Below, piece after piece: positions 12,111 to 50,761 of a DNA stretch of 64,000 bases; position 1 is the first letter of the stretch; each line of letters starts with the position of its first letter. The notes under the pieces were generated by a model, which worked only from the letters and a program-made list of their open reading frames with translations, was not told where the DNA came from and did not search any database. The DNA is taken from assembly GCA_030647255.1 (NCBI GenBank), contig JAUSJK010000048.1, forward strand, positions 32,540 to 96,539, given 5' to 3'. The stretch is from a bacterium. Lineage in GTDB: Bacteria > Patescibacteriota > Microgenomatia > UBA1406 > GWC2-37-13. Position numbers and translations under genes: made by a program.

Positions 12111-12111
12111 T

Positions 12112-13182: not shown

Positions 13183-14133
13183 TCAACTTTTGATACTAGA
13201 GAGGTATTTATCGATTTCCTGAGAACTACCCAATACTATCGGGGTGCGTTGATGAACAGAAGTGGGCGTTATTTCCAACGGGTCCGCAGTTCCCGAGATA
13301 GACTTTCCGCCTGCTTGGTTTACAATAAACGACATCGGATTTACTTCAAACATCAATCTCAGTTTACCTTGAGCATTTTTAAAATCGGCAGGGTGTAAAA
13401 AAATACCACCTTTTAATAACGTCCGGTGAATATCGGCCACCATAGACCCGACATATCTCAATTTATATTTTTTTTCCTTCTTGAGAGAGGAAATGTAGTT
13501 TTTGACTTTTATATCAAACATCTCAAAGTAACCTTCATTGATAGAATACGTCGAGCCTTTTTCAGGAATGCGGATATTCGGATGGGACAAGAGAAAACTG
13601 CCGATTGATGGATCAAGAGTAAAGCCGTTGACACCCGAACCGGAAGTATAGACGAACATGATGCTTGATCCGTAGACAACATATCCTGCAGCTACTTGTT
13701 GAGAGCCCTTTTGTAAATAATTCCCAGAATTTTTGTAAATGGAAAAAATTGTTCCGATACTTACATTGGTGTCGATATTGGATGAACCGTCGAGAGGATC
13801 AAAAAAAATAGCATAGTGTCCTTTATTTTTGAGTCGGATCGGTTTTTCGAGTTCTTCGGATGCGATTGTCGAAACTAAATTACTACTCGATAGTATATTG
13901 ACCAGAAGATCATTTGAAAACACGTCCAGTTTTTGTACTTCTTCCTCATAGACATTTGTTCCGCCTGTTTGACCCAATATATCGACGAGCCCTGCCTTTT
14001 TAATATGGCTGCCGATGATTTTAGTCGCATTTTCAATGAGTGTCATGAGAAGTGTAAAGTTGCCTGTTGCCTGAGGGAATTTTGATTCTTCTTCCAAAAT
14101 AAACTCTGTCAATGTCGTGACATTTTTAAACAT
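13183..14133 (-). CDS. fbp: fructose-1,6-bisphosphatase, class 1
   Basis: FDPLDGSSNID, YVGSMVADIHRTLLKGGIF and 316 aa. Confidence 0.9.
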   Translation of the reverse strand: MFKNVTTLTEFILEEESKFPQATGNFTLLMTLIENATKIIGSHIKKAGLVDILGQTGGTNVYEEEVQKLDVFSNDLLVNILSSSNLVSTIASEELEKPIRLKNKGHYAIFFDPLDGSSNIDTNVSIGTIFSIYKNSGNYLQKGSQQVAAGYVVYGSSIMFVYTSGSGVNGFTLDPSIGSFLLSHPNIRIPEKGSTYSINEGYFEMFDIKVKNYISSLKKEKKYKLRYVGSMVADIHRTLLKGGIFLHPADFKNAQGKLRLMFEVNPMSFIVNQAGGKSISGTADPLEITPTSVHQRTPIVLGSSQEIDKYLSSIKS

Positions 14134-14147
14134 AGTGTTTCGTCATA

Positions 14148-15152
14148 TTATAATTCTCCCATGCTCGCCTGATAGACTTTTTGGGCCCGACTGATAAATA
14201 CTTTTTGAGCGGCGGCAACATTCTCCGCTTTTCCGCCCCAGGCTTCAATTGCTTCGCCTTGAAGAGCTCTTCCGTAAGAAGCGGTAATTCGCCATGGATA
14301 TTTTTCCTCGCTTTTAAGTTTCATTTTATTCATTTCATTCAAATGAGCGGTTGCCAGATCGGGGCTTTGACCGCCGGATAAAAATGCAATACCCGGTACA
14401 TTATCAGGTACGATGTGTTTGAGTGTCTCTAGGGTTATTTGGGCGACTTGCTCTACGCTCGCTTGCTGGGCATTTTTCTTGCCCGCCGTAATCATATTTG
14501 GTTTGAGAATAATACCTTGGGTATGAACGCCATATTTTTTTAACTGTAGGAAAACATTTTTTAATACTTCTTGAGTAACACCCTCATCTCTATCTAAAGT
14601 ATGGTCGCCGTCCATGAGGACTTCAGGCTCTACGATCGGTACGATCTCTGCGTCTTGACAAAGCAAAGCGTACAACGCAAGATCATGAGCGTTTCGTTGA
14701 ACAGAAATATCCGACGGAGATGTGAGGTCTATCGTATAGACCGCTCTCCATTTGGCAAACCTGGCTCCCAATTCCCGGTATTCAATCAGCCGTTTAGCAA
14801 GACCGTCAAAACCCTGAGTGTACGTATCTTGGCCACTTTGAGGAATGGGAGTAGTTCCTTTATCCACTTTTATTCCGGGTACGATACCCATTTTCTCGAG
14901 CAATTGTGGAAAAGGAACGCCGTTATCTGTTGTTTGGCGGATGGTTTCGTCGTATAAGATGACACCACTGACATAATCTCCGATTCCTTCGGCGGTAAAA
15001 AGAAGTTGTCTATAGAGTCTGTTAATTTCTGGAGTGGACTGAACTCCTATGGTAGCCATTCGTTTGGTGATAGTAGAGGTGCTTTCATCGGCCGCAAGAA
15101 TTGTTCGTGAGACGACTTCTTTAGCAGTTTGTGCCAATTTTTGTGTGTCCAT
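14148..15152 (-). CDS. fba: fructose-bisphosphate aldolase, class I (Schiff-base type)
   Basis: ILAADESTSTITKR, ILKPNM (Schiff-base Lys region) and FLSGGQS. Confidence 0.85.
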   Translation of the reverse strand: MDTQKLAQTAKEVVSRTILAADESTSTITKRMATIGVQSTPEINRLYRQLLFTAEGIGDYVSGVILYDETIRQTTDNGVPFPQLLEKMGIVPGIKVDKGTTPIPQSGQDTYTQGFDGLAKRLIEYRELGARFAKWRAVYTIDLTSPSDISVQRNAHDLALYALLCQDAEIVPIVEPEVLMDGDHTLDRDEGVTQEVLKNVFLQLKKYGVHTQGIILKPNMITAGKKNAQQASVEQVAQITLETLKHIVPDNVPGIAFLSGGQSPDLATAHLNEMNKMKLKSEEKYPWRITASYGRALQGEAIEAWGGKAENVAAAQKVFISRAQKVYQASMGEL

Positions 15153-15276
15153 AGATACTAATAATTAATAATTTCATACACTATCATACACTCAGTATAT
15201 TTTATTTGTCAACAGAATCTATTCTTCTCTATTATATAATGAAAATAGAACTTGAAAGTAAATAAATAAAGACTAT

Positions 15277-15687
15277 ATGGACTGTGTTTTCTGCAAAATT
15301 ATCAAAGGCGAGCTACCGTCGTACAAAATCTACGAGGATGAGAATTTTTTGGGATTTTTAGATATCCGTCCATTAAACCCGGGTAATTCAATTCTTATTC
15401 CAAAGAAACACTATCGCTGGGTATACGATGTGCCAAATTTTGGAGAGTACTGGGAAGCCGCTAAGAAAATTGTCATCGCGACGGAAAAAACGATCAAACC
15501 AAATTCAATTAACTTTTTGACCCTAGGTTATGAAGTGCCACATGCTCATATTCGTATTATTCCTCGATTTGATAACGATAATCATACCGACGGAATTCGT
15601 TTAAGTGCGATAAAAAATATATCGAAGGAAAGAATGGAAGAAATAGCCAATAAAATTAGAGAGGCAATAAAATCAGTTAAAAGTTAG
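15277..15687 (+). CDS. HIT (histidine triad) family protein
   Basis: CVFCKIIKGELPS and the triad-like VPHAHIRIIPR. Confidence 0.8.
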   Translation: MDCVFCKIIKGELPSYKIYEDENFLGFLDIRPLNPGNSILIPKKHYRWVYDVPNFGEYWEAAKKIVIATEKTIKPNSINFLTLGYEVPHAHIRIIPRFDNDNHTDGIRLSAIKNISKERMEEIANKIREAIKSVKS

Positions 15688-17408
15688 AAACAATACCATT
15701 TATCTTTCTTCAGTTGTTCTGCCCGTAGAAGAAGTAGAGGATTTTGCAGTTGTTGATTATAAAGTGTTTTTTGTATCGTACAGGACTGTAGGTTGAGTTC
15801 GGCGGCTTTATCAAACGCTTTTTGAAACGATTCATTCTGCTCAAATAAAGAGAATATGCGGGCCAATCGTAAGAGATATAAATAATCACTCTGTGTGTCT
15901 ATCAGATTATTGAAATATCCTGCTGACAAACGAATGTCTTCTACTTTTTTATCCTTCGTAAAAATCACCATGGCCCGATCAAGATATACCATCCGCCAAC
16001 TTGTATCTTTATACATATGTATGAGGAATGTTTCCGCCCAAGGGGTTTGATCCGTATGGGCAAACACAACTGTTCGTATCTGATATTTTTCAAATATGTG
16101 TTTTTGAAGTTCGGGATCCTGCTGAAGTTTTATATAGATATCTTGAATAAAATCTTTCGGGTAGGCTTCGGGACGGTTATCAATAAATACTTTATATTGA
16201 GGATATAAACGGTAAATAAGATATCCGCCGATGTCAAAATTATTGAATATATTTCCATCAATTTTATTTTCCAGCATAAAATCACTGGCTTTTTTACCGT
16301 CTTCCAGGAGGTGATATCCAAACCGTGATTGAATATCAAAAGTGCGGGAGTATACATTTCCAGCGAAGAAATATATTCCTAAAGGAAGAATGCAGAGTAA
16401 GATTGTATATCCGACGGTGCGAATAATATTGATGTCTTTTTTTATCCGCTTAAAAAGGAAAGATAAAAAATCAGCATACGCGATGCTTAATACGGGAATA
16501 GTCGTCAGTACGAAAAAAGGCATGTGTCGTATCTGCTTAAATGCCAGAAAATAAAAAAGAAGGAGGATTAATGCTTCAATATATTTTTTCTTTATTGCAA
16601 GAATGAGCGCACCAAAAAGTATGAGAGGAGAGAGAAGAAAAAAGTATGTAATGAGAGGATTAAAGGTGACTGCGTGTAAAAATAAAAGGTCCTGATTTTC
16701 AACGATAGGATAGCCATAATTTTGGAAGATGGATAAAGGATAGAGAAGTCCTTGGATTCCATGGGGGTTTATCAATAAGGCGATAAAAGACGTTATGAGT
16801 ATTGCGATTATTTTTTTATCTTTAAACAATTCTTTCTTATGAATAATGAGCATTTTGAATATAAGAAAAAAAGCAAGCATCACCCCGAAGACGAATGAGA
16901 TGTGAAAATTAATCCATAAAAATAGAGATATAGGAAGAAAAATAAGCAATTTTTTAGATGACGGATAGTGGAGGAGAATCATCAACATAAGTGAAAATAG
17001 CACATATCCGAATAATTCAGGCCGTATATCCGATCGTTCAAGAAGGAGGGGGACAAAGATGGTAGTAAAGAAAACAGCGACAAAAAAGCCACCTTTTTTT
17101 ATTGAGGTGTAAGTGCCTATTCCTACGGCCGCCATAACTAATAGTACTTTAAGGAACATCAGCAGAGGGAATCCCAAAAGAGCATTCATCACATAAAAAA
17201 TGACTTCGGAAAGCCAGTGATGGTTGAAGAAAGGGTAGTCTTGATTGGTAAAAGAAAATAAATTAGTCGAAGGGACAGATCTGGTACTGAGAATAATCTC
17301 TGCGAGTTTGATATGTCTCCCTAGATCCTGATTAAAATCTCGACTCCAGGTGAATGTGACGGAGAATATAAACAGAAATAATAATCCAAGAATTATTTTT
17401 TTGAACAT
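15684..17408 (-). CDS. large polytopic membrane protein, possibly a GT-C-like glycosyltransferase
   Basis: 574 aa with more than 10 hydrophobic helices and a soluble C-terminal region. No diagnostic motif was recognised. Confidence 0.35.
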   Translation of the reverse strand: MFKKIILGLLFLFIFSVTFTWSRDFNQDLGRHIKLAEIILSTRSVPSTNLFSFTNQDYPFFNHHWLSEVIFYVMNALLGFPLLMFLKVLLVMAAVGIGTYTSIKKGGFFVAVFFTTIFVPLLLERSDIRPELFGYVLFSLMLMILLHYPSSKKLLIFLPISLFLWINFHISFVFGVMLAFFLIFKMLIIHKKELFKDKKIIAILITSFIALLINPHGIQGLLYPLSIFQNYGYPIVENQDLLFLHAVTFNPLITYFFLLSPLILFGALILAIKKKYIEALILLLFYFLAFKQIRHMPFFVLTTIPVLSIAYADFLSFLFKRIKKDINIIRTVGYTILLCILPLGIYFFAGNVYSRTFDIQSRFGYHLLEDGKKASDFMLENKIDGNIFNNFDIGGYLIYRLYPQYKVFIDNRPEAYPKDFIQDIYIKLQQDPELQKHIFEKYQIRTVVFAHTDQTPWAETFLIHMYKDTSWRMVYLDRAMVIFTKDKKVEDIRLSAGYFNNLIDTQSDYLYLLRLARIFSLFEQNESFQKAFDKAAELNLQSCTIQKTLYNQQLQNPLLLLRAEQLKKDKWYCF

Positions 17409-38211: not shown

Positions 38212-39186
38212 CTATACGATTACTTTTTTCAGTTCTTCGATAGTGAGACGTTTTTCAGACTGTAGTGTACGTATTTGTTTTACCCGATGAATCATATCTT
38301 GATGATAGAGTTGATATCCTCCTGGAGAATACTTTTTTACTCGCAATAAACCTTCATTTGTCCAGAACCGAATTGTCGGAACAGTCTCTTCGGTCATTTT
38401 GGCCAATTCTCCAATTTTAAGCAGTGCATCTGACTTCTCGATTATTTCTTTCGGTTCGAGTGACTCGAGATAGATTAACACCGATCTTTCGACAGCCAAG
38501 AACATGAGAGGAATGTAATCTGAAAGATCGCCGGATAGTTGTCCCTTTTCAATACTATTAATATAGACTTTCCTATCTTCTTTGCGGATTATTGCGGGTG
38601 GATAGCCTGCCTGCATAAGGATCAAGTTCATAAGTAAGCGCGCTGTTCTTCCGTTTCCGTCGGTAAAGGGATGAATGCTCACAAATGTATAGTGAGCGCG
38701 TAATGCCACATCTATGATATCGTTATTGGTGTTATGAAGCCAATCGATCAATTCCTTCATCAAGTCAGGCACTTTCAGGGCATTGGGCATAACTACGGAA
38801 GAGCCGGCAATGCGGACGGGCACATTCCTATATCGTCCTGCATTTGTCGTGTCAATATCTCGCAAGATGAGAGAGTGAATATCTCTGATAGTACGCTCTG
38901 TAATATTCTTTTTCGTCTTATTTTTGAGAGACATAATATAGTCCCAGGCTTTTGCGTGATTGATAGCTTCGAGGTGTTCAACTATGGATTTTCCTTCTAC
39001 AGTGATGCCTTTTTCGACAACAAGCGCCGTCTCCTGCCGTGAGAGTGTATTACCCTCAATTGCATTAGACGTATAGGTGAGTTCCACCTTATACCATTCG
39101 TCCAGATTTTTTATAATCTCTTTAGGAAATGGCCGGTGAGCGTCGAGCCGTTTTTTTAATTCATGGAGCCGAGACAGTGTTACCAT
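38212..39186 (-). CDS. Fic-domain protein (class II, self-inhibited) fused to a C-terminal MerR-type HTH
   Basis: Inhibitory motif TSNAIEGN ((S/T)xxxE(G/N)). Fic motif HPFTDGNGRTARLL. C-terminus LKIGELAKMTEETVPTIRFWTNEGLL...GGYQLY (MerR HTH). Confidence 0.8.
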   Translation of the reverse strand: MVTLSRLHELKKRLDAHRPFPKEIIKNLDEWYKVELTYTSNAIEGNTLSRQETALVVEKGITVEGKSIVEHLEAINHAKAWDYIMSLKNKTKKNITERTIRDIHSLILRDIDTTNAGRYRNVPVRIAGSSVVMPNALKVPDLMKELIDWLHNTNNDIIDVALRAHYTFVSIHPFTDGNGRTARLLMNLILMQAGYPPAIIRKEDRKVYINSIEKGQLSGDLSDYIPLMFLAVERSVLIYLESLEPKEIIEKSDALLKIGELAKMTEETVPTIRFWTNEGLLRVKKYSPGGYQLYHQDMIHRVKQIRTLQSEKRLTIEELKKVIV

Positions 39187-39252
39187 GGCTAAAGTATAAA
39201 GTAATACTTTATGGTTGTCAAGTGGTAATTCACATTCTTAAAATTAGCCTGC

Positions 39253-39404
39253 GTCAATTGAAAACCCCAGCCCTTTCCAGTAACCTATTGGTATTAAAAG
39301 AAAACCATTTTATCAATCATATGGAAACAACAAAAATTGCTTTATTCAAAGGAAGAAAAATACGAAAAACTCTCTATCAAGACGAATGGTGGTTTTCTGT
39401 AATA
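39253..39404 (+). repeat. direct repeat R1: duplicated upstream region plus first 28 codons of the Bro-N gene
   Basis: About 95% identical to 41898-42048, including ATGGAAACAACAAAAATTGCTTTATTCAAAGGAAG. Homology ends at ...TTCTGTAATA. Confidence 0.9.
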
Positions 39405-39460
39405 CAGTTGACGTCTCTCTTGCTAATATCAACAAAATAGCATATAATGTTGACATTACT

Positions 39461-40642
39461 ATGAACAATATCAACTCAGTACAAATAGGCAGGTATATCA
39501 AGCAAAAAGAAGGTTATGGAGCCTTCACGCCTTTTGATTTTCCTCCAAAAGATGGCTTAATGATGAGCCCAAAATTGTATAAAAAAAACGAGGAGGCAAT
39601 ACGATTAGTCGGTAAACTCGATGGCATCACGAGACTCTTGCCGGACAAGAACTTTTTCCTCAAGATGTTTATAAAAAAAGATGCCGCTTATTCTAGTCAG
39701 ATTGAAGGCACGAAGGCAACTTTACAAGACGCAGTAGCGGCGCCAGTTACCGAAGAAAAATCTCGGCTCCCCGCTGACGTTGACGACATTAATCATTATG
39801 TCAACGCGGTAAATTATGGCATCGAAAGAACCAAGACCTTGCCGATTTCTCTGAGACTCATAAGAGAAATACATGAGCGACTGATGACCGGTGCACGTTC
39901 GACACAGCATGCATACCCAGGCGAGTTTCGACATTCCCAGAATTGGATAGGAGGCAGGGCTCCTACAGATGCTTCTTTCGTACCTCCTGCCCCGCATGAT
40001 ATGTATAAATCATTAGATGATCTGGAAAAATTTATCCATGCAATAGATGACTATCCATCGTTGGTAAAAGTTGGATTGATCCATGCGCAGTTTGAAACTA
40101 TTCACCCGTTTACTGACGGTAATGGTCGAACAGGACGAATGTTGATAGTCATGTATATTCACCACGCCGGACTTTTAGAAATACCGGTATTGTACTTATC
40201 AAGCTATTTTAAAAAGTATCAAAAACTCTATTATCAAAAATTACAAAGTTATCATGATGCGAATGCCCAGGTTGATGCTTGGCTGGAGTTCTTTTTGGAA
40301 GGCGTAGCAGAAATTGCAGATGCTTCAATCGAAATTTGTACTAAGATAACTGCACTACGAGACTTAGATTTTGCCAAAATGCAAAAACTTGGCAAAAAAT
40401 CGGCTGAGTCCACTTTGGAAATAATCCGTAAACTATTTGGTCAGCCAATTGTCGGCGTTGCGGAGATAATGAAGTGGACGGGTTTTAGTCCACAGGGTGC
40501 ATATAATGTGATCAAGCGACTTGAGAATTTAAAAATCCTTGAACCTCTTGGTGATGCTGTTTATGGGCAGAAATATATTTACGCTGACTACTATGAAATA
40601 TTTGACGATGGATTTAGAGAAGCAAGGGCGAAGAAAAAATAA
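39461..40642 (+). CDS. Fic family protein (Fic_N + Fic + C-terminal wHTH architecture)
   Basis: SSQIEG inhibitory motif and HPFTDGNGRTGRML. The ATG at 39461 is used because the tracked longer ORF starts inside the repeat scar. Confidence 0.8.
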   Translation: MNNINSVQIGRYIKQKEGYGAFTPFDFPPKDGLMMSPKLYKKNEEAIRLVGKLDGITRLLPDKNFFLKMFIKKDAAYSSQIEGTKATLQDAVAAPVTEEKSRLPADVDDINHYVNAVNYGIERTKTLPISLRLIREIHERLMTGARSTQHAYPGEFRHSQNWIGGRAPTDASFVPPAPHDMYKSLDDLEKFIHAIDDYPSLVKVGLIHAQFETIHPFTDGNGRTGRMLIVMYIHHAGLLEIPVLYLSSYFKKYQKLYYQKLQSYHDANAQVDAWLEFFLEGVAEIADASIEICTKITALRDLDFAKMQKLGKKSAESTLEIIRKLFGQPIVGVAEIMKWTGFSPQGAYNVIKRLENLKILEPLGDAVYGQKYIYADYYEIFDDGFREARAKKK

Positions 40643-40727
40643 ACTATGGCAACTTTTCAAAATAGCTTTAAATTGCTATTACTCAGATGCGGTCTTTATT
40701 GGACAGCAGTAGTGTGAAGTGGAAAAG
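40628..40727 (+). repeat. direct repeat T1 (shared 3' module)
   Basis: GCGAAGAAAAAATAAACTATGGCAACTTTTCAAAATAGCTTTAAATTGCTAT... recurs at 41745-41838. It begins in the last codons (AKKK*) of the Fic gene. Confidence 0.85.
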
Positions 40728-40750
40728 TAACTAATGTATAAATCAAAAAT

Positions 40751-41749
40751 ATGAAAAACTTACAACTTCAATCACAAATAATTATCTATAAAACAGAAAC
40801 AGGCGAGACCAAAATTGACGTGCGGTTTGATGGAGACACGGTCTGGTTGAGTCAGGATGAAATGGCTCGACTCTTTGATAAAGGCCGTTCAACTATTGCA
40901 GAACATATTGTTAAAGTATTTAAGGAAAAAGAACTAGTAGAGGGATCAGTATGTCGGGAATTCCGACGTACTGGCGCTGACGGAAAAGAATATCAGGTAC
41001 AATACTACAATCTCGATGTTATTATCTCCGTTGGTTACCGAGTCAAATCACTCCGTGGTACTCAATTTCGCATTTGGGCAACCAAGCATCTGCGCGAATA
41101 TATCGTCAAAGGTTTTGTGATGGATGATGAACGACTGAAAAACCCCGATTTGCCATTTGATTATTTTGAAGAACTCACTCGTCGTATTGCGGACATTCGT
41201 ACTTCAGAAAAAAGATTTTATAGAAAAATTACTGATATTTATGCTACCAGTGTTGATTACGATCCTACAGACGAGAAGAGTATTCTCTTTTTCAAAACGG
41301 TCCAAAATAAAGTGCATTATGCAATTACCGGAAATACTGCGGCGGAGATAATTGCCAGTAGAGTAGATAGTAAAAAACCAAATGTAGGTCTCACAAACTT
41401 TAGGGGTAGCAAGCCAACAAAAGAAGAATTGGTGATCGCCAAAAATTATTTAAGTGAGCAGGAACTTCTCATTTTAAATAATCTTGTCGAGCAGTATCTC
41501 GTATTTGCCGAAGGACAGGCCATGCAGAGGGTGCCAATGTATATGAAGGACTGGATAGATAAACTCCACGCATTTTTACAGATTAACAATAAAAATATTT
41601 TGAAAGATGCAGGTAAAATTTCCCATGAGTTGGCGGTAGAAAAAGCGGAAAAGAATTTTGATGAATATAAAAAAAGCGAAGCAAAAAAATTGGACAATGA
41701 TTTTGATTCGGCAGCCTTGCGTGCGCTGAAAATAGCGAAGAAAAAATAA
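40751..41749 (+). CDS. RhuM-family protein
   Basis: IIYKTETGETKIDVRFDGDTVWLSQDEMARLFDKGRSTIAEHI...YNLDVIISVGYRVKS is the characteristic RhuM N-terminus. Confidence 0.8.
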   Translation: MKNLQLQSQIIIYKTETGETKIDVRFDGDTVWLSQDEMARLFDKGRSTIAEHIVKVFKEKELVEGSVCREFRRTGADGKEYQVQYYNLDVIISVGYRVKSLRGTQFRIWATKHLREYIVKGFVMDDERLKNPDLPFDYFEELTRRIADIRTSEKRFYRKITDIYATSVDYDPTDEKSILFFKTVQNKVHYAITGNTAAEIIASRVDSKKPNVGLTNFRGSKPTKEELVIAKNYLSEQELLILNNLVEQYLVFAEGQAMQRVPMYMKDWIDKLHAFLQINNKNILKDAGKISHELAVEKAEKNFDEYKKSEAKKLDNDFDSAALRALKIAKKK

Positions 41750-41838
41750 ACTATGGCAACTTTTCAAAATAGCTTTAAATTGCTATAGTTCAGATGCTGT
41801 CGTTATTGGATAGTAGCAGTTTAAGGAAATTGAAAAGC
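41745..41838 (+). repeat. direct repeat T2 (shared 3' module)
   Basis: Second copy of the T module. It begins in the last codons (AKKK*) of RhuM. Confidence 0.85.
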
Positions 41839-41897
41839 TGAAAAATTAATTTGATCTCCACTTACCTTACCTCCGATTCTATACTTTTTTAACCAGA

Positions 41898-42048
41898 GTC
41901 AATTGAAAACCCCAGCCCTTTCCAGTAACCTATTGGTATTAAAGAAAACCATTTTATCACTCATATGGAAACAACAAAAATTGCTTTATTCAAAGGAAGA
42001 AAAATCAGAAAAACTCTCTATCAAGATGCATGGTGGTTTTCTGTAATA
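41898..42048 (+). repeat. direct repeat R2 (intact copy, continuous with the Bro-N gene)
   Basis: See R1. A third partial copy, TTGAAAACCCCAGCCTTTTCTAGTAACCTATCGTATT, lies at 42810-42846. Confidence 0.9.
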
Positions 42049-42795
42049 GATGTAATTGAAGTCCTTACCGATAGTTTAAATTCCAACGATTACTGGTATA
42101 GAATGAAAATCCGTGTGAAGGATGAAGATAAAACTGAGTTATCGACAATTTGTCGACAACTGAAATTGGAATCTGCTGACGGAAAGAGATATGAAACCGA
42201 TTGTGCCGATACTGAAGGTATCTTTCGGATTATTCAATCTATTCCTTCTCCTAAGGCAGAGCCATTCAAACGCTGGCTTGCCAAAGTGGGTTATGAAAGA
42301 GTTCAGGAAATAGAAAATCCTGAACTAGCAACTAAACGCACGCGAACATTGTACAAACTTAAAGGTTATAGTGATGATTGGATAGAAAAACGAATGAGAG
42401 GCATCGCTATTCGAGAAGAACTCACTGACGAGTGGAAAAATCGTGGAGCCAGAGATGATAAAGATTATGAGATTTTGACAGCTGAAATTTCCAAGGCAAC
42501 TTTTGATGTGACTCCAAGTGAATATAAAAAAATTAAAGGCCTGAAGAGGGAAAACTTACGCGATCATATGGATGACTTTGAACTTATTTTTAACATGCTT
42601 AGTGAACGTGCCACAACCGAAATTCATCGTACTGAGGACTCAAAGGGTGTAACAAAACTCCGAAGCGATGCAAAAGCCGGAGGCGATATCGCAGGTGGGG
42701 CTAGAAAAAAGTTGGAAAAACGGCTTGGCCGTTCTGTAGTATCAGAGAAGAATTTTCTCAATAAGAAGGAAGATAACAAACAATTGAACAAATAA
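41965..42795 (+). CDS. Bro-N domain protein (prophage antirepressor-like)
   Basis: ALFKGRKIRKTLYQDAWWFSVIDVIEVLTDS...GIFRIIQSIPSPKAEPFKRWLAKVG has the Bro-N pattern. Confidence 0.75.
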   Translation: METTKIALFKGRKIRKTLYQDAWWFSVIDVIEVLTDSLNSNDYWYRMKIRVKDEDKTELSTICRQLKLESADGKRYETDCADTEGIFRIIQSIPSPKAEPFKRWLAKVGYERVQEIENPELATKRTRTLYKLKGYSDDWIEKRMRGIAIREELTDEWKNRGARDDKDYEILTAEISKATFDVTPSEYKKIKGLKRENLRDHMDDFELIFNMLSERATTEIHRTEDSKGVTKLRSDAKAGGDIAGGARKKLEKRLGRSVVSEKNFLNKKEDNKQLNK

Positions 42796-42809
42796 GTTTC
42801 ATGATAACT

Positions 42810-42846
42810 TTGAAAACCCCAGCCTTTTCTAGTAACCTATCGTATT
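42810..42846 (+). repeat. partial third copy (R3) of the R-repeat core
   Basis: Matches the TTGAAAACCCCAGCC..TAACCTAT.GTATT core of R1 and R2 with 3 mismatches. Confidence 0.75.
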
Positions 42847-43006
42847 CATTGGCAAGTTTAACTAGAAAAATTTCTTAGTAGTCTCCTGAAGCTGAAATGT
42901 CTATACTACTTATGAATACCTATGAAGCAAATCTATTGCAATTTATGAAATTAAAGACTATACTGCTCTGTATTGTAACAAAATAATAATACTTTAGATT
43001 AATACT

Positions 43007-44689
43007 ATGGATATCACTAAAATGACTTTTGGAAAAACATCTGAATATCTTACGATAGGCGAGGTTTCTAAGTTATTTCATATCCATCAAGATACTCTTA
43101 GGAACTGGGAGAAAAGTGGCGAATTAGTTCCTCTGCGAGTTGGCCCACGTAAGGATCGCAAATATCGTAAGCAAGACATAGAAACAATTATTGCCAAAAT
43201 GGGAAGTAAGCTCACGCTGGCTCAACTCGAACAGTTTCTATGGAAAAGTGCCGACATATTGCGAGGCAAAATTGACAGCTCTGACTATAAAAAATATATC
43301 TTCGGGTTACTTTTTTACAAAAGAATTAGTGACGTTTGGGATGAAGAATACAAAAAAGTCATTGATGAATATAAAGACAAGACACTCGCTGAAGCTGAAT
43401 ATAACCACAGATTCCAAGTGCCAAAAGACTGCAAATGGGAAGTTATTACCCAGACATCAGAGAACATCGGCCAGAAACTCAATGATATTTTTGACAAAAT
43501 TACAAACGTAAATAGTCCAAAGCTGGATAAGATTTTTAATGATCTGGATTTTGCCAATAAGGATAGATTCCCCAATGAAACCATTCAAAGACTAGTAAAT
43601 CACTTCTCTCAATATAACTTTGGCAGTAATTACATCAGTTCTGATCTCTTGGGTGACGCTTACGAGTATTTAATCAAGCAATTTGCTGCAGATGCAGGGA
43701 AAAAAGGCGGCGAATTCTACACTCCACGAGAAGTTGAGCGAATCATCATAGGAATTGTTAAGCCTCATCAAAAAGACCATGTTTACGACCCGACAGTAGG
43801 TTCAGGAGGATTTCTTCTTGAAGCATATAACTACCTTAAAAATAGGTCGAATGAGCAAGTTGCACGAACACTTTACTTTTATGGACAGGAAATCAATATC
43901 AGTACCTTTGCTATTGCCAAAATCAACATGTTTTTACATGGACTGGATAGTTCAGATATAAGGCGTGGTGACACCCTGGCAAATCCGCAGTTCCTCAATA
44001 ATATGGGAAATTTACAAACTTTTGACATCGTGGTCGCTAACCCTCCGTATTCCATAAAAGATTGGGAGTTTGAACTATTCAAAAGCGACAAATATGGTCG
44101 TACCCAAGAGTATGAACTCCCTCCACAGAAAAACGCTGACTATGCTTTTGTACTCCACATACTTAAGTCATTGAACGTAAATGGTCGTGCTGGCATTGTG
44201 TTGCCTCATGGAGTCCTATTTAGAGGCGGTAGCGAAGGCCGAATCCGAGAACAGATTATCAAAAATGATCTTTTGGAAGCGGTTATTGGGCTTCCACCTA
44301 AACTTTTTTATGGAACTGGTATTCCAGCAGCAATTCTTATTTTCAATCGAAACAAAGCAGAAAACAAAAAAGGGAAAGTATTACTTATTGATGCGGAGCG
44401 TGATTTTCTTGAAGGAAAAAACCAAAATACTCTCAGAAAGCAGGATATAGACAAAATTATTAAGACTTACGATCAATATCAAGATGTCGAAAAGTACGCC
44501 AGAGTTGTTGATGTAAAAGAAATCGAAGAAAACGAATATAACCTCAATGTGAGGCGATACATTGATAGTAACGAAGAACAAGTTCAAATTGACGTAAAAC
44601 AAGTCTGGAAGGAACTACAAAATTTGGAAAAAGACAGAGAAGAAATCAACAAAAAAGTAGCAGATTTTATAAACGAGTTAGGATACTAG
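43007..44689 (+). CDS. hsdM: Type I R-M N6-adenine DNA methyltransferase subunit with an N-terminal MerR/excisionase-type HTH
   Basis: N-terminus LTIGEVSKLFHIHQDTLRNWEKSGELVPLRVGPRKDRKY (HTH). HsdM_N (LEQFLWKSADILRG). Motif I DPTVGSGGFL. Motif IV VANPPYS. Confidence 0.9.
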   Translation: MDITKMTFGKTSEYLTIGEVSKLFHIHQDTLRNWEKSGELVPLRVGPRKDRKYRKQDIETIIAKMGSKLTLAQLEQFLWKSADILRGKIDSSDYKKYIFGLLFYKRISDVWDEEYKKVIDEYKDKTLAEAEYNHRFQVPKDCKWEVITQTSENIGQKLNDIFDKITNVNSPKLDKIFNDLDFANKDRFPNETIQRLVNHFSQYNFGSNYISSDLLGDAYEYLIKQFAADAGKKGGEFYTPREVERIIIGIVKPHQKDHVYDPTVGSGGFLLEAYNYLKNRSNEQVARTLYFYGQEINISTFAIAKINMFLHGLDSSDIRRGDTLANPQFLNNMGNLQTFDIVVANPPYSIKDWEFELFKSDKYGRTQEYELPPQKNADYAFVLHILKSLNVNGRAGIVLPHGVLFRGGSEGRIREQIIKNDLLEAVIGLPPKLFYGTGIPAAILIFNRNKAENKKGKVLLIDAERDFLEGKNQNTLRKQDIDKIIKTYDQYQDVEKYARVVDVKEIEENEYNLNVRRYIDSNEEQVQIDVKQVWKELQNLEKDREEINKKVADFINELGY

Positions 44690-44690
44690 T

Positions 44691-45329
44691 ATGATATACA
44701 TCTTTCTGGACGAAAGCGGAGATCTTGGATTTAATCCATCAAAAAAGAATTCAAAATATTTCGTTATAACCGTTTTGGCAACAGAGGATAAGCGAAAGGT
44801 TGAAAAAGTAATAAAGAAAATTCATAGTTCTTTACGAAAAAAAACCAAGAAACTTTCCGGTGGCATACTTCACTGTTACAAAGAAAAACCTGCAACGAGG
44901 CATAAACTTCTCCAGAAACTTTCAGGTTTAAATATTCATATAATGACGATATATCTACATAAGGTAAAAGTATTCACGCATTTGCAAGACGAAAAGCATG
45001 TGTTATATAACTACGTTACAAATATTCTTCTGGACAGAATCATGTCGAAGAAACTGATCAATGTCGTAGCCAATGTTCACTTAATCGCGGCTAAGAGAGA
45101 AACTAATAAATTTTTAAATGATAATTTCTCCAACTATCTTAAGACCCAAGCTCGCGATAATCACAAAATACGGTTAGATATTGTGATCAGAACTCCATCA
45201 GAGGAAAAAGGAATACAAGCTGTAGACTTTGTGAGCTGGTCAGTATTTCGTAAGTATGAGCACGGAGACGCAGAATATTACAAAGAAATTAAAAATAAAA
45301 TTGTAGAGGAGAACGGACTGTTTAAATAG
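44691..45329 (+). CDS. DUF3800-family protein embedded in the Type I R-M operon
   Basis: The N-terminal IYIFLDESGDLGF is the DUF3800 hallmark. The ATG lies 1 nt after the hsdM stop. Confidence 0.65.
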   Translation: MIYIFLDESGDLGFNPSKKNSKYFVITVLATEDKRKVEKVIKKIHSSLRKKTKKLSGGILHCYKEKPATRHKLLQKLSGLNIHIMTIYLHKVKVFTHLQDEKHVLYNYVTNILLDRIMSKKLINVVANVHLIAAKRETNKFLNDNFSNYLKTQARDNHKIRLDIVIRTPSEEKGIQAVDFVSWSVFRKYEHGDAEYYKEIKNKIVEENGLFK

Positions 45330-45441
45330 CACAAAACCCTAGTCGCTATTTATGAGGAACCATCCGGAACCCCACGGCTAGGGAATTACTTGTAAACCAA
45401 TTATATAACAAGCGGTTGATATAAGTCAATTAAAAAATCAT

Positions 45442-46590
45442 ATGAAAAATAAAAATAATTGGACAGCATCAACAATCGGAGAATTATTTGAAGTTACCAA
45501 TGGAAAAACGAATACTGATGAAGCAGTTCTAAATGGTAAATATCCGCTGTTTGATCGTTCAATAGAAATAAAATATAGCGATAAGTTTCTGTTCGATACG
45601 GAGGCGGTTATCTTGCCGGGTGAGGGAAAAGATTTTATTCCACGATATTATATTGGGAAATTCGACCTACATCAACGGGCTTATGCAATCTTTCCAAAGA
45701 GCAAAATAGACCTGAGTCTAAAATTCTTATATTACTGGATGCTTTATAAAAGTCAGTACTTAACTAAAATGGCAGTTGGCTCAACAGTAAAGTCACTCAG
45801 ACTTTATATGTTAAAGAATTTTCCATTAGAGTTTCCCGATCATAAATCACAGGAGAAAATTACTAATTTCTTTGAATTGATTGACAAGAAACTCGCTAAG
45901 GCAGATCAGATTATTCAAAAGACTGAAACTTTGAAGCAGGGCTTAATGCTAGAATTACTCACGAAAGGACTCGGTCATAAAAAGTTTAAGAAAACAAAAA
46001 TTGGAGAAATTCCTGATGAATGGGAAGTAATGAGTGTGGGACAAATTTGTGATTGTATTGTTCCAGGGAGAAATAAACCTAAAATTTTTAATGGAGACAT
46101 TCCATGGATTACGATACCCAACATACAGGATTCAAGGATTCAATACAATGAAGCTACAAAATATGTTTCAAGACAAGAACTCAAAAATTGTGGAAATAAA
46201 ATAATACCAGCAAATTCAGTAATCATGTCATGTGTTGGTGATTTTGGTATCGTAGCTGTAACTGATAGGGAAATCGCCATTAATCAGCAATTACATGCTT
46301 TCTTGCCTTCAAGTAAATTAGATCAGAACTTTCTTAAATTTTCATTGATATTGCAAAAAGATTTCATGGAAAATTTGGCAACTAAAACTTCTGTACCTTA
46401 TCTGAATAAGACTAGCTGTAATTCTATTCCTATTGCTAAACCTTCTCTTGAGGAACAACGAAAAATAGGAACTATTTTGTTCTCCATAGATCATAAAATA
46501 TTAATTGAGAAAATGAATAAAGAAAAACTACAAATTCTTAAAAAAGGCCTCATGCAAGATATTTTTAGTCAGAAAGTTAAAATAAATTAA
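45442..46590 (+). CDS. hsdS: Type I R-M specificity subunit
   Basis: Two target-recognition halves are separated by the conserved helices TETLKQGLMLELLTKG and LQILKKGLMQDIFS. Confidence 0.85.
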   Translation: MKNKNNWTASTIGELFEVTNGKTNTDEAVLNGKYPLFDRSIEIKYSDKFLFDTEAVILPGEGKDFIPRYYIGKFDLHQRAYAIFPKSKIDLSLKFLYYWMLYKSQYLTKMAVGSTVKSLRLYMLKNFPLEFPDHKSQEKITNFFELIDKKLAKADQIIQKTETLKQGLMLELLTKGLGHKKFKKTKIGEIPDEWEVMSVGQICDCIVPGRNKPKIFNGDIPWITIPNIQDSRIQYNEATKYVSRQELKNCGNKIIPANSVIMSCVGDFGIVAVTDREIAINQQLHAFLPSSKLDQNFLKFSLILQKDFMENLATKTSVPYLNKTSCNSIPIAKPSLEEQRKIGTILFSIDHKILIEKMNKEKLQILKKGLMQDIFSQKVKIN

Positions 46591-46591
46591 T

Positions 46592-47239
46592 ATGAAACAT
46601 ACATGGAACGATGATCAAATTAGAGATTATCTAATAAATCATATTAAAAAATCAATAATAGATGATGTAGGTGGAGCATTGATAGGATGGTCAAGTCAGA
46701 TGCATAATAAAAAATACATAGCTGGATCTTTTGCCGTGCCACGAATGTTATTCCCAGAGATTGATGGTTTAGGCTCTTATATAACTGGTAATCCTAAATC
46801 TACCGGTTCGAATATAAAAACTTACATCTCAAACATTTTGGGAGAATCTAATCACAAATATAAAGAATTCGCAGGATTTATTGTTTTTATTTTCAGACAT
46901 GGGCTACTTCATCAACATCAACCAAAGGAATTTACACATAACAACAAGCAAATTGGTTGGGAGTTTCGAATTAGTGATCCAAATAATCCCATTGAAGTTA
47001 ACGAAAAATACCATTTAGAATTTAAAAGTGATGTATTAACAATAGATGCTAACATCTTTTATAGAGATATTGTCAATTCCGTTGAGGGTTTCGCAGAAGA
47101 TGTTATTACAAAATATAGAAGTACATTTGAAACTTCTCTTGATGCACAAATGAAATCTCTTACTAAAGAATCCTTGCTTAAAGAGGTGAAGTATTTGGAA
47201 GATACAGATTTTACATTTCTAGAAACCTATGAAATTTAA
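46592..47239 (+). CDS. uncharacterised 215-aa protein between hsdS and hsdR; candidate HEPN-like (RHGLLH = Rx4H)
   Basis: ATG 1 nt after the hsdS stop, and an 11-nt overlap with hsdR. No family was recognised. The only catalytic-looking motif is FIFRHGLLHQHQP (aa 100-112). Confidence 0.5.
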   Translation: MKHTWNDDQIRDYLINHIKKSIIDDVGGALIGWSSQMHNKKYIAGSFAVPRMLFPEIDGLGSYITGNPKSTGSNIKTYISNILGESNHKYKEFAGFIVFIFRHGLLHQHQPKEFTHNNKQIGWEFRISDPNNPIEVNEKYHLEFKSDVLTIDANIFYRDIVNSVEGFAEDVITKYRSTFETSLDAQMKSLTKESLLKEVKYLEDTDFTFLETYEI

Positions 47240-50189
47240 CGAACAATATACAGTCGAAAAACATGTCGTTAAATTCTTATCCCAAAACTTGGGTTATGAG
47301 TATATTACTCCTGAAGATTTTGCTGGTTTGAGAAGTCTGGAAAATGAATACCTGATAGTTTCTCATCTTATAGAAGCTGTAAAACGAATAAATAACATTA
47401 CAGATGATACTGAAATCCAAAGTGTTATCCGGGAAATAAGGAAAATTGATACAAATGAGGGCTTCTTAAAACTCCTGCGTAATGGCGTAAACCTGAAAGA
47501 TTCAGAAACAGGCAAAATGCGTGATTACATGATCGTGGGCTACGATAACCTCGAAAACAATCAATTTGTAGTCACAAATCAATTCTACTTTGAAGGCAAT
47601 CTGGAAAATATACGATCTGATATTTTGGTTTTCCTTAACGGTATTCCTGTCGTTGATATTGAGGCAAAAAGTCCCACCGCATCCACCAGTGTTAGTTATG
47701 AAAATGCGATTGGTCAAATAATACGTTACCAGCGAGTCGCTATGAAGCTATTCTGGCCTAACTGTTTTAATATTGCGACAGATGGCTTAAAAACTGTCTA
47801 TGCTACTACTTACGCACCAGAACAGTACTTCTTGCAATGGAGAGATCCCTCCTTCGCTAAAGCTTCGGCGGGCAAGGAAGATTTGGAGTCTGATACAGGA
47901 TTGGAATTGACGCTTACTTCTTTATTAGATAAAAGTAGACTCTTAGATATTATTAAAAATTTCATTGTCTTTGAACAGACAAAAGACGGTCGCATTAAAA
48001 AGATGGCTCGTTACCAACAACTTCGTGCCACAAATAAAATCGTCGAACGAGTGAAAAAGGGAGAGAAGAAACGAGGCTTAATTTGGCACACGCAGGGATC
48101 GGGAAAATCTCTAACAATGTTTTTTACCGCATGGAAGCTCAGGTTTGACGAGTCTCTCAAGAATCCAAAAGTATTTGTTCTTGTTGATCGAATCGACCTA
48201 GACAATCAGATTTATGATTCATTTATCAATGCAGGTGGTAAAAACGTAATTAGAGTTACCTCCCAGCGTGATCTTGCGAAGAAAATTACCAATGATGAAA
48301 GAGGAATCTTTATCTCTACTATCGAGAAATTTAATGAACTTCCACTACATCTTGAGAATCCTCATGAAAATATCATCATTCTTTCTGATGAGGCTCACAG
48401 GTCGAACGAGGGTGTTGCTGGAATTAAACTACGAGATTCGATGGGAAAGGCTTTCTTCTTCGGATTTACAGGTACACCAATTGATAAAACGACTCTTAAT
48501 ACTCACCGAAACTTTGGTGAAGAAGGAGAACGCTATCTTGACTACTACTCCATTCAACAAGCCATTGATGACGGAGCAACCTTACCAGTAACATATGAGG
48601 CTCGTCTTTCCAAATTCTTTATTGATGAAGAAAAAATTGACCAGCAATTTGATGAGATGACCACCGATTTATCAGATGAGCAAAAACAATTAGTCATGCG
48701 ACGCTATGGCAAGAAAGAAGCGCTTATAAAACTTGATAAACGCATGAGAGCTGTAGCTCAAGATATTGTAGATCACTACCGACTTTACATTGAGCCGAAT
48801 GGCTTTAAAGCTCAAGTCGTTTGCTATGACCGAGAAGCGACTGCCAAATTCAAACAATTATTCAACGATCTTATTCCAGCCGAATGGACAGAAGTGGTGT
48901 ATTCATCTGGTGATCCTAATACTGACTCGGAGAGCTTGAGAAAATATAATACCAGCAAAGCTCAAAGAGAAAAAATTATTGATAAGTTCAAAGACCCGAA
49001 AACTCCTCTTAAATTATTGTTAGTCTGCGATATGCTTTTAACTGGATTTGATGCCCAAATTGAACAAGCGATGTACCTGGATAAGCCTTTGCGAGATCAC
49101 AATTTATTGCAAGCGATTGCTCGGACAAACAGAGTTTATCCAAATAAGGGATGCGGAAAGATAATTGACTACTATGGAATCACAAGAAACCTCTACGAGG
49201 CTTTGAATTTCGATGAAAGTATTATCGACTCAGCACTTATTGATCTTGACCACTTGAAAAAGGAGTTTTTGGAAGTTTTAGGTGAAATAAAAGATATTTT
49301 TACTGGTATCAATCAAGAAGACCCATCTATTGAAAACTTGAGGAGATGCTTAAAAATATTCATTGATAACGAAGGCAAACAGCGATACTTCACAGATAAG
49401 TATTCCAGATTAAAGCTATTATTTGAAGTTTTGTCACCTGACCCATTCCTTGCTGATTACATTCGAACATTCAAATGGACTACCAGTGTCTATATTGCTT
49501 TCCTCAATGATTTCCGTCAAGAAAATTTTGCAATGGAGGCTTTCCGAAGCGGTGACATTCCAACCTTCGGGGAGTATGGTGAAAGAGTTAAAAAATTGAT
49601 TCAAGAACAAATCGACTATGAAGGAATTACTAAAAACTTCAGAGAGTTAAAAATAAACGATATTTATACTCTTGAACGACTCGACAAGATGGATGATGAA
49701 GAAAAAGCACTCAACTTAGAAAAGATGCTTAAACAAGAGATTTCTATAAACATTGATACAAACCCTGTATTTCAAAAGTTTAGTGAGAGATTAACAGCTA
49801 TTCGTAAAGAATTTGAACAGCACCAGATTGATCTTTCTGAACGAATCAAACGTTATTATGACTTAATGAACGATATTAAAAATAAATATGATGAAGCAAA
49901 GGAGTTAGGACTTAATTTGCAGGAATATGGATTATTTGTCATTTCTCAAGAGTTTTTACCCAAAACAGACCAGCCAATTCTGTTGAGTTTGTCTAAAGAC
50001 CTTTCAAAGAGATTGCAGGCTATTCTTGATGAGGGCTGGCAGTATTCATCTAAGCGTGAAGAATTTCTTAAAGGTGTAAAACAGACTATCCAAGAGTTGA
50101 TTTTGAAGGAATACAAAAAGAAACTACAAGTTAAAGATTTCCCTAAATTTTTAAACAGACTCGTTGACATTGTAATCAAGAAGTTCTAA
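47229..50189 (+). CDS. hsdR: Type I restriction enzyme R subunit
   Basis: N-terminal PD-(D/E)XK region (DILVFLNGIPVVDIEAK), Walker A HTQGSGKSLTM, DEAH box LSDEAHRS, motif VI QAIARTNR, 986 aa. Confidence 0.9.
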   Translation: MKFNEQYTVEKHVVKFLSQNLGYEYITPEDFAGLRSLENEYLIVSHLIEAVKRINNITDDTEIQSVIREIRKIDTNEGFLKLLRNGVNLKDSETGKMRDYMIVGYDNLENNQFVVTNQFYFEGNLENIRSDILVFLNGIPVVDIEAKSPTASTSVSYENAIGQIIRYQRVAMKLFWPNCFNIATDGLKTVYATTYAPEQYFLQWRDPSFAKASAGKEDLESDTGLELTLTSLLDKSRLLDIIKNFIVFEQTKDGRIKKMARYQQLRATNKIVERVKKGEKKRGLIWHTQGSGKSLTMFFTAWKLRFDESLKNPKVFVLVDRIDLDNQIYDSFINAGGKNVIRVTSQRDLAKKITNDERGIFISTIEKFNELPLHLENPHENIIILSDEAHRSNEGVAGIKLRDSMGKAFFFGFTGTPIDKTTLNTHRNFGEEGERYLDYYSIQQAIDDGATLPVTYEARLSKFFIDEEKIDQQFDEMTTDLSDEQKQLVMRRYGKKEALIKLDKRMRAVAQDIVDHYRLYIEPNGFKAQVVCYDREATAKFKQLFNDLIPAEWTEVVYSSGDPNTDSESLRKYNTSKAQREKIIDKFKDPKTPLKLLLVCDMLLTGFDAQIEQAMYLDKPLRDHNLLQAIARTNRVYPNKGCGKIIDYYGITRNLYEALNFDESIIDSALIDLDHLKKEFLEVLGEIKDIFTGINQEDPSIENLRRCLKIFIDNEGKQRYFTDKYSRLKLLFEVLSPDPFLADYIRTFKWTTSVYIAFLNDFRQENFAMEAFRSGDIPTFGEYGERVKKLIQEQIDYEGITKNFRELKINDIYTLERLDKMDDEEKALNLEKMLKQEISINIDTNPVFQKFSERLTAIRKEFEQHQIDLSERIKRYYDLMNDIKNKYDEAKELGLNLQEYGLFVISQEFLPKTDQPILLSLSKDLSKRLQAILDEGWQYSSKREEFLKGVKQTIQELILKEYKKKLQVKDFPKFLNRLVDIVIKKF

Positions 50190-50761
50190 TGAAAAAACAG
50201 ATTAACCTGCACAATCGAGTCGTAAACTACTCTATCCGTAGAAGTAAAAGAGCCAAGCGGATGAGGCTAGCTGTTTATTGTGACGGTAACTTCATTGTTA
50301 CTGTTCCCCAAACTTTCCCCACAAATTCAATTGATAGATACGTTATCGCTAAATCGCAGTGGGTCATCTCTAAGCTCAATTTTTTTGAAGGACTTAACAA
50401 AAAGCAGAAATTAACTTTTGGAGATAATGGATACGAGAAGTATAAGGAAAAAGCATTAGAAATGATTATCAAAAGACTGACAGCTCTTAATAAAACGCAT
50501 TATCAGTTCAAATTCAATAAATTAACAATCAGGAATCAAAAAACTCGTTGGGGAAGCTGCTCTAAGAAACGAAACCTTAACTTTAACTATAAAATATTAT
50601 TCCTGCATCCAAAGATAAGAGACTATATTATGATTCACGAACTATGTCATCTGAAAGAATTTAACCACTCGAAGAAATATTGGTCATTGGTAGAGAAAGC
50701 TCTTCCAAATTTTAAGAATGTCCAAGAGGAACTGAAAGTACACGGAATATTGTTAGGATGA
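50189..50761 (+). CDS. DUF45/YgjP-like (M48/SprT-like) zinc metallopeptidase
   Basis: KTRWGSCS...IMIHELCHLKEFNHSKKYW contains an HExxH motif. The start overlaps the hsdR stop (TAATG). Confidence 0.8.
   Translation: MKKQINLHNRVVNYSIRRSKRAKRMRLAVYCDGNFIVTVPQTFPTNSIDRYVIAKSQWVISKLNFFEGLNKKQKLTFGDNGYEKYKEKALEMIIKRLTALNKTHYQFKFNKLTIRNQKTRWGSCSKKRNLNFNYKILFLHPKIRDYIMIHELCHLKEFNHSKKYWSLVEKALPNFKNVQEELKVHGILLG

Follow-up and report, generated by a model that had tools for sequence, protein, structure and literature searches.

Gene and repeat layout at the locus

We analysed a 64,000-nucleotide stretch of contig JAUSJK010000048.1 (hereafter the window; contig C79 in our numbering) from the metagenome-assembled genome (MAG) of a bacterium of the Candidate Phyla Radiation (CPR; 1.2 Mb in 90 contigs, 94% complete), and within it a segment at 38212-42846 where Fic, RhuM and Bro-N genes are joined by direct repeats ahead of a type I restriction-modification (R-M) operon. 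Domains were called with Pfam on every gene from 35.2 to 55 kb and defence families with PADLOC. The left border of the rearranged segment is a divergently transcribed gene on the minus strand for a Fic protein with a C-terminal MerR-type helix-turn-helix (HTH) domain (38212-39186; Pfam Fic 1e-23, MerR_1 1e-14; PADLOC PDC-S04 8e-36). Everything discussed to its right lies on the plus strand: a 393-residue SoFic-type Fic protein gene (39461-40642; Pfam Fic_N and Fic; PADLOC SoFic 6e-104), a RhuM family gene (40751-41749; Pfam 6e-107, PADLOC PDC-S05 3e-136), an intact Bro-N gene (41965-42795; Pfam Bro-N 8e-13, PADLOC PDC-S13 3e-116) and the R-M operon, in which Pfam identified hsdM, DUF3800, hsdS, an open reading frame (ORF) of 215 amino acids, hsdR and a YgjP-like peptidase (43007-50761). 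All four cargo genes match full-length PADLOC hidden Markov models of predicted defence families (SoFic, PDC-S05, PDC-S13 and PDC-S04), such that the segment reads as a row of candidate single-gene defence systems ahead of a type I R-M operon.

A repeat search across 36-46 kb, with limits set by global alignment, revealed two kinds of direct repeat between these genes, here called R and T. A first-pass annotation of this DNA had reported a segment of about 150 bp that occurs twice at about 95% identity, and both copies were recovered at 39244-39404 (R1) and 41889-42048 (R2) with 94-95% identity; they consist of a 108-nt pair at 95% (39297-39404 and 41941-42048) and a 67-nt pair at 88% (39244-39310 and 41889-41955) that is offset by one base through a 1-nt indel. 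The third R core that it had placed at 42810-42846 (R3) was likewise found by repeat search and alignment, with 31 nt matching at 94% and 38 nt at 89%, and the 31-nt core stands at 39258-39288, 41903-41933 and 42810-42840 (100, 100 and 94%). Also as annotated, the Fic and RhuM genes share a 3' module, with T1 at 40628-40727 and T2 at 41735-41838 (86-91% identity; 86 nt at 91% for 40628-40713 and 41735-41820), except that T2 begins at 41735 rather than 41745. By whole-genome BLAST, R1 and R2 match at 94% across 160 nt and T1 and T2 at 86% across 103 nt. All the direct repeats exceed 30 bp, with lengths of 161 nt (R1/R2), about 100 nt (T1/T2) and 31-38 nt (R2 core/R3), and matches this long cannot be due to chance within 10 kb.

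Because the R core and T are both confined to this one locus within the 1.2-Mb genome, they do not represent a dispersed repeat family. Exact-pattern searches with the R and T cores gave no match in genome, viral and metagenome collections, blastn-short found neither module in about 260 other loci, and BLAST against 150 relatives returned only the conserved coding part of Bro-N and chance-level matches. The suggestion that R and T might be attached to other cargo genes thus found no example in those collections or relatives. Inverted repeats between 36 and 46 kb occur at chance level only, hsdS is single copy and no recombinase lies nearby, which does not fit a type I hsdS shufflon or inverton with its inverted repeats in hsdS copies and its invertase. 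The earlier remark that no recombinase gene is visible nearby held up as well: tyrosine recombinases (PF00589) are absent from the contig, with three matches elsewhere in the genome (contigs C41, C80 and C1), serine recombinases (PF00239) have no match in the whole genome, and Pfam called no mobility gene in or beside the insert between 35.2 and 55 kb, DDE transposase families not having been searched genome-wide.

Gene edges that make up the repeats

Alignment to the surrounding genes revealed that R is made of the 68 nt upstream of Bro-N together with Bro-N codons 1-28 and spans the Bro-N start codon. In R2 these codons open the intact gene. In R1 (upstream region 39244-39311, codons 1-28 at 39312-39404) they encode METTKIALFKGRKIRKTLYQDEWWFSVI and are followed by unrelated residues up to a TAG at 39438-39440, which agrees with the original description of this copy as a dead stump fused to unrelated sequence. 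The coding parts of R1 and R2 differ by 3 synonymous changes and 1 non-synonymous change. It is the intact gene that carries the unusual residue, an Ala at codon 23 (42031-42033) directly in front of a WWF motif, a position occupied by Glu in 83 of 85 homologs; the stump retains the family-consensus Glu (39378-39380) and has no non-consensus residues, and the surviving Bro-N copy may be functionally altered by the Ala. DNA homology of Bro-N to about 90 other loci is limited to the interval from about -14 through the stop codon. The 38-nt core lies just outside it on both sides, at -62 to -25 and again at +15 to +51 of the ORF, such that the R2 core and R3, which lies 14 nt past the Bro-N stop and ends 160 nt before hsdM, bracket a Bro-N unit running from -24 to +14. 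A second Bro-N paralog with 65% amino-acid identity is present in the same genome (C83:5699-6514, locus L020) and has a weak 45-nt flanking direct repeat of its own (5440-5484 and 7002-7045, 84%).

The Fic gene has a similarly sharp border. Its DNA homology (83-84%) to the hsdM-Fic-hsdS operons of other CPR genomes (loci L108-L114) runs from 39406 to the Fic stop codon at 40642 and so begins one or two bases past the end of R1, and the 55-nt leader in front of the ORF (39405-39460), the left end of the putatively imported unit, recurs at 85-95% identity, and with a common left limit, in more than 20 CPR Fic loci. Because homology and leader both stop where R1 ends, the Fic cassette is a discrete unit butted against Bro-N codon 28. 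The leader, in which a promoter scan called a promoter-like TTGCTA-17-TATAAT (39420-39448), is better conserved than the Fic ORF (about 83%), and some annotations take it as an N-terminal extension of the protein (…NINKIAYNVDIT-M).

At the other end of the Fic gene, T starts with GCGAAGAAAAAATAA, which encodes AKKK and the stop; T1 comprises the last 4 Fic codons, the stop codon that it spans and about 85 nt downstream. The window Fic protein ends natively in ...FREARAKKK*, its homologs (82-92% identical, mostly 393 aa) in many cases end in ARAKKK, and alignment of the RhuM family revealed C-termini of the form ...ALEIAKKK(K...). Homology of RhuM to its closest relative (L106, 90% DNA identity) covers 40745-41745 only and ends inside the AKKK codons, where the first 11-15 nt of T2 (GCGAAGAAAAAATAA) are the RhuM 3' end and the Fic 3' end at once. 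AKKK codons are therefore native to both families, carried by descent, and form an 11-15-nt microhomology: the RhuM/T2 joint falls inside GCGAAGAAAAAA, a sequence native to both 3' ends. We had also considered that T was native to RhuM alone, which was dropped since Fic homologs also end in ARAKKK*, and that T was the 5' stump of a donor gene that followed Fic, such as hsdS, for which 70 loci offered no similarity downstream of Fic and no convincing frame was seen. Past the stop codon, the remaining 85-100 nt of T match nothing that follows Fic or RhuM in the other loci compared.

The same scar in other genomes

Evaluating the three cargo genes more widely revealed DNA that is 72-90% identical across CPR, Proteobacteria, Bacteroidota, Omnitrophota, Nitrospinota and other phyla (loci L026-L272), with nucleotide homology to other genomes that stops within tens of bases of each ORF. 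Across phyla the proteins share 66-85% (Bro-N), 82-92% (Fic) and 75-91% (RhuM) of their amino acids, while the adjacent R-M genes share only 25-45%. With such an excess of conservation over their neighbours and such sharp limits of homology, the cargo genes are discrete, horizontally mobile units that move independently, as single genes.

We then asked of each gene of 0.5-1.5 kb in these loci whether a direct repeat is common to the 400 bp on its upstream side and the 400 bp on its downstream side (blastn with fixed search space, E<=1e-6). Flanking direct repeats were found for 9/74 Bro-N, 9/63 Fic and 13/73 RhuM genes, together 31/210, as compared to 26/950 neighbouring control genes (odds ratio 6.2, Fisher p 2e-10). 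Among the controls that do have flanking repeats are genes for ORF6N (two cases), DUF1016/YhcG, AbiEii and Fic, which makes the comparison a conservative one. The repeats are unrelated sequences of 20-216 nt, each copied from whichever gene adjoins in that genome, and in about half of the cases the repeat runs across the start of the gene that follows or the stop of the gene before, as in the window and in loci L028, L191, L199, L201, L205, L227, L054 and L142.

Individual loci reproduce the anatomy of the window with other genes as the source of the scar. In a Kerfeldbacteria genome (L028) Fic stands behind a 55-nt stump that repeats the hsdR start and 17 codons; in two Bacteroidota (L201, L205) a 5' stump of hsdR precedes RhuM; in L197 and L199 the stump before RhuM comes from a PD-(D/E)XK gene, and in L227 and L258 from another downstream gene. 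Copies of 3' ends occur as well, with two copies of an ORF6N 3' end flanking Bro-N in L054 and a 59-nt repeat in L100 that begins at the stop codon of the upstream gene. A 30-nt repeat at -20/+16 of Bro-N in L086 gives unit limits nearly those of the window, and L079 holds a miniature hsdR behind Bro-N (8940-9212), a 66-nt 5' stump fused to the last ~50 nt of the gene. The pairs L197/L199, L201/L205 and L227/L258 have the same architecture in independent assemblies with diverged sequence. In L079 the intergenic module found ahead of RhuM and of Bro-N is present once more after the miniature hsdR.

These parallel cases made it possible to evaluate where the two copies of a repeat came from. A codon test pooled nine pairs of 5' stump and intact gene, from this window and eight other loci, and counted 26 synonymous and 14 non-synonymous differences (pN/pS 0.13). 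Neutral decay predicts about 19% synonymous differences and was rejected (p 4e-10). Also rejected was duplication in place (p 2.5e-5), for which a neutrally decaying stump beside an intact copy under purifying selection would give no more than about 33%. The synonymous excess implies that most of the divergence arose while both copies sat in working genes, as would be the case if different alleles had been joined by recombination, one repeat copy then presumably being the donor's allele and the other the recipient's.

A proposed route of cassette gain and its alternatives

Taken as a history, this anatomy is probably the product of nested insertions with long target duplication that arose by homology-anchored illegitimate recombination. 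The defence island would have been built by at least three nested gains of single-gene defence cassettes ahead of the type I R-M operon, with each gain leaving a long direct duplication of local sequence as its scar. One event would have placed the Bro-N unit (-24 to +14 of the ORF) between two 31-38-nt copies, the R2 core and R3. In another the Fic unit, which extends from the 55-nt leader through the ORF to about 135 nt past its end, would have been joined inside Bro-N after codon 28, such that R2 kept an intact Bro-N downstream and the other copy was left as the dead stump R1. A third would have joined the RhuM unit behind Fic, with its right-hand joint in the 11-15-nt microhomology GCGAAGAAAAAA(TAA), and left the Fic 3' flank on both sides of RhuM as T1 and T2. 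A neighbouring gene escapes disruption in this way, as the duplicated stretch includes its start or stop codon.

The incoming DNA would have come from the island of a diverged relative, with one end pairing in a shared gene and the other joining illegitimately at microhomology. For the Fic event we infer an anchor in Bro-N or the hsd genes on the right and an illegitimate joint in recipient Bro-N codon 28; for the RhuM event, an anchor in Fic or T on the left and an illegitimate joint in GCGAAGAAAAAA. The allele pattern together with the AKKK microhomology joint fits homology-facilitated illegitimate recombination. The first-pass annotation had proposed that recombination at shared junction sequences shuffles or inserts cargo here, and part of this stands, in that the cargo was recombined in, with the repeats marking the joints and the shared sequence probably acting as a homologous anchor. 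Its reusable junction modules do not, as the repeats are products of the recombination events, built of neighbouring gene edges rather than specialised for joining. Evidence of shuffling that still continues was not seen either, no reads having been mapped. The genome also encodes an intact DprA and a ComEC-like match that contains two stop codons, which together hint weakly at DNA uptake.

Long duplications of this kind have been seen before. Insertion with long target duplication was reportedly described by Nobusato et al. (2000, Gene 259:99). Kobayashi's group, which gave it this name, found R-M units without mobility genes between unique direct repeats of 30-400 bp that often span a start or stop codon and leave the target gene intact, with most cases in naturally competent species (Furuta, Abe & Kobayashi 2010, NAR 38:2428, PMC2853133). 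The window shares with these cases its repeats of more than 30 bp, of variable length and unique local sequence, the lack of a transposase or integrase, the link to R-M genes and the spanning of starts and stops. It differs in that the inserts are single accessory or defence genes (Fic, RhuM and Bro-N) rather than R-M gene sets, that three nested events lie within 3.6 kb in a CPR host, and that its repeat copies, by the codon pattern, seem to be alleles of donor and recipient and not an in-place copy. Homology-facilitated illegitimate recombination is the other precedent, and is said to have been demonstrated with selectable markers during transformation of Acinetobacter, Streptococcus pneumoniae and Pseudomonas stutzeri by de Vries & Wackernagel (2002) and Prudhomme et al. 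(2002). There, as proposed here, one homologous anchor and one microhomology joint add foreign DNA beside a shared gene with no dedicated recombinase, although those cases are experimental and ours is read from sequence alone. We know of no description of this process as a route for embedding defence genes in R-M operons.

Two alternatives also concern how the copies came to differ. In true long target duplication in place, a foreign cassette would be ligated across a break with widely staggered ends, or would connect two sister copies at a replication fork; fill-in would copy 38-161 bp of recipient sequence, and the two copies, both of recipient origin, would diverge later. It would produce the same final anatomy and is how the original descriptions interpreted their cases, in which the two repeats often resemble one another more closely than either resembles the empty site (PMC2853133). 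We regard it as unlikely for this locus, since the pooled 26:14 ratio exceeds the share of synonymous changes that it allows, the window stump is all consensus with the odd residue in the intact copy, and a RhuM joint inside the Fic 3'-end microhomology suits an illegitimate joint better than fill-in. Copies that look like different alleles are also what strain variants would give, and with a 90-contig MAG as the source, and MAGs behind all comparable cases, the contig could be conceived as a chimera of co-occurring strains with repeats from mis-joined variants. This seems very improbable: the copies differ by 5-14% and hence are not collapsed repeats, the joint of R1 to the Fic leader has no shared sequence able to mislead a de Bruijn assembler, the architectures recur in independent assemblies from different studies (the three locus pairs above), and the phenomenon is documented in finished isolate genomes (PMC2853133).

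Other explanations look to the function of the repeats. R might be a promoter or operator through which Fic-RhuM, Bro-N and the R-M operon are controlled together, and a MerR-type HTH, either that of HsdM or that of the divergent Fic protein, could be what binds it; T would be a shared 3' untranslated region or terminator. The R core does lie upstream of three transcription units and starts with TTGAAA, two HTH domains are encoded alongside, relatives have a separate MerR-type HTH gene before hsdM, and 96.7% of embedded genes are co-oriented with their host system (bioRxiv 10.1101/2024.01.29.577857). Yet the R core was not called by a promoter scan, which led us to reject it as a sigma-70 promoter, and better sites stand nearer the genes (39420-39448 and 42936-42964). 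No palindrome is conserved, as CCAGTA can no longer pair with TATTGG in R3. T forms no hairpin with a T-run such as a terminator would show, and an operator would have no use for the 84 nt of coding sequence contained in R1. We consider a retained regulatory role improbable, and it concerns why the scars persist rather than how they originated. Still less credible is a cassette system of the integron (attC) or shufflon type, with R and T as its dedicated recombination sites and a recombinase encoded elsewhere that inserts, excises or reorders cargo at them. Repeats positioned exactly between cargo genes, a 3' module common to unrelated cargo and comparable repeat-flanked cargo in other R-M islands would suit such sites. 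Their composition would not, as R is Bro-N coding and 5' sequence and T opens with native coding sequence, and the repeats of different genomes (20 to 216 nt) have no common sequence or structure. The modules are also absent from all collections searched and from the 150 relatives, with no integrase on the contig and no serine recombinase in the genome. The small ATAGC/GCTAT hairpin that had been pointed out in T is not significant, since T1 and T2 fold differently with weak z-scores (-1.2 and -2.6) and have no Rfam match. R is unstructured, and a structured RNA or small RNA gene in T or R was rejected on Rfam matches at chance level only (E up to 5) and on folds that were non-significant and inconsistent between copies. 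Conserved unit ends as a nuclease or recombinase target were ruled out too, as the inserted units share no conserved terminal sequences for such recognition across examples. Integron arrays and clusters of attC sites lacking integron-integrases (CALINs) resemble the window in having promoterless or single-ORF units parted by repeats, with cargo that is often defence-related; the window lacks IntI, attC-type imperfect palindromes and any site common to its cassettes, and its Bro-N is not followed by T where an attC-like element should follow each cassette.

Several observations weigh against recombination between diverged islands as the origin of the segment. Competence genes are also present in non-competent bacteria, and the ComEC-like match has its two internal stops. 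For the window locus no empty site or donor was found among 150 relatives, which include no genome of the same genus, and the exact Bro-N and RhuM proteins match no other contig. The window alone gives 3:1 synonymous to non-synonymous differences, which is not significant; the test is pooled, and some of its pairs may share ancestry. Every repeat-positive locus sampled comes from a MAG; in six finished plasmids that carry hsdM-RhuM-hsdS the genes overlap seamlessly at their junctions and flanking repeats are absent. There is also a background, in that 23/659 genes of the genome (3.5%) have flanking repeats at E<=1e-3, some of them housekeeping genes, and an 85-nt perfect repeat in L021 lies among repetitive extragenic palindromic (REP)-like sequences and is probably a dispersed element rather than a target copy. 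L021 and this 3.5% background led us to reject the idea that every flanking repeat is a target duplication and to adopt the neighbour-gene controls and the stricter threshold.

Some of these counterexamples have features of their own. In the finished-plasmid loci L273-L276 (from Aliarcobacter, Neotabrizicola, Rhodobacter and Methylocystis) RhuM overlaps the hsdM and hsdS genes on either side of it by 4-8 nt each; hsdM is preceded by an hsdS-like gene of half size, and Shedu or KAP NTPase genes come after. The housekeeping genes with flanking repeats (44-88 nt, 85-93%) include a CNNM transporter, SufBD and a dehydrogenase (C14:10893-12179, C57:6118-8085, C89:273-1214 and others). In L021 (400-760 and 1620-1780) Bro-N is a pseudogene with an in-frame stop, amid GC-rich REP-like palindromes such as CCTCCCCTATGAGGGGAGG.

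Defence islands and the wider neighbourhood

Defence genes are very often nested in R-M, BREX and similar operons, and new systems are now being discovered through this embedding. Type I R-M loci with embedded RhuM, Fic and DUF1016 genes were already known (PMC9881135), and a 'guilt by embedding' survey catalogued defence genes inside type I R-M, BREX, DISARM and Hma, describing how embedding arises as unexplored (Payne et al. 2024, bioRxiv 10.1101/2024.01.29.577857). PrrC in EcoprrI is a further example of embedding. The window cargo is co-oriented with the R-M operon and corresponds to catalogued embedded candidates (SoFic, PDC-S05, PDC-S13 and PDC-S04); it differs in that the cassettes sit just upstream of hsdM and not between hsd genes.

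Alone, the feature in the window is an ordinary recombination scar of an already known type, and what is new is its setting, with single-gene defence cassettes nested three deep in a CPR bacterium. Together with about 30 parallel cases it forms a recurring footprint: before the incoming gene stands a short dead duplicate of the start of its neighbour, or after it a duplicate of the neighbour's end. The codon differences speak for diverged islands having recombined, and not for transposon-like machinery. This would be a simple route for building defence islands, also in CPR bacteria, which to our knowledge are without most classical mobile elements, and the scar may go some way towards accounting for defence genes that lie within other defence systems. 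For annotation, stumps could serve as a cue that marks recent cassette gain. The wider regularity and the allele-origin signal go beyond the earlier description of long target duplication and merit study in complete genomes.

A broader and more tentative possibility, which we hold to be doubtful at present, is that one-ended homologous recombination carries single-gene defence cassettes from R-M island to R-M island across unrelated phyla. The cassettes would be those of SoFic-type Fic, RhuM/PDC-S05 and Bro-N/PDC-S13, and probably also of ORF6N, DUF1016 and AbiEii. Each would carry the edge codons of a former neighbour (hsdR, hsdM, PD-(D/E)XK or Bro-N) as its next anchor and leave the recipient edge as a stump. 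If so, conserved R-M gene ends would be portable landing pads, and it would be explained why embedded defence genes are co-oriented and non-disruptive inside other defence systems.

The wider neighbourhood adds a few observations. Beyond the R-M operon Pfam identified a PD-(D/E)XK gene and a third Fic gene, reaching 52621. The window HsdM carries an N-terminal MerR/HTH_17 domain (43007-43200), and in related CPR R-M operons this domain forms a separate 57-aa gene directly 5' of hsdM (e.g. L109 6164-6337). In L027, genes with reverse-transcriptase and formylglycine-generating enzyme (FGE)-sulfatase domains stand amid dozens of 30-160-nt repeats beside Bro-N and RhuM (4900-16000), a segment that is probably a diversity-generating retroelement.

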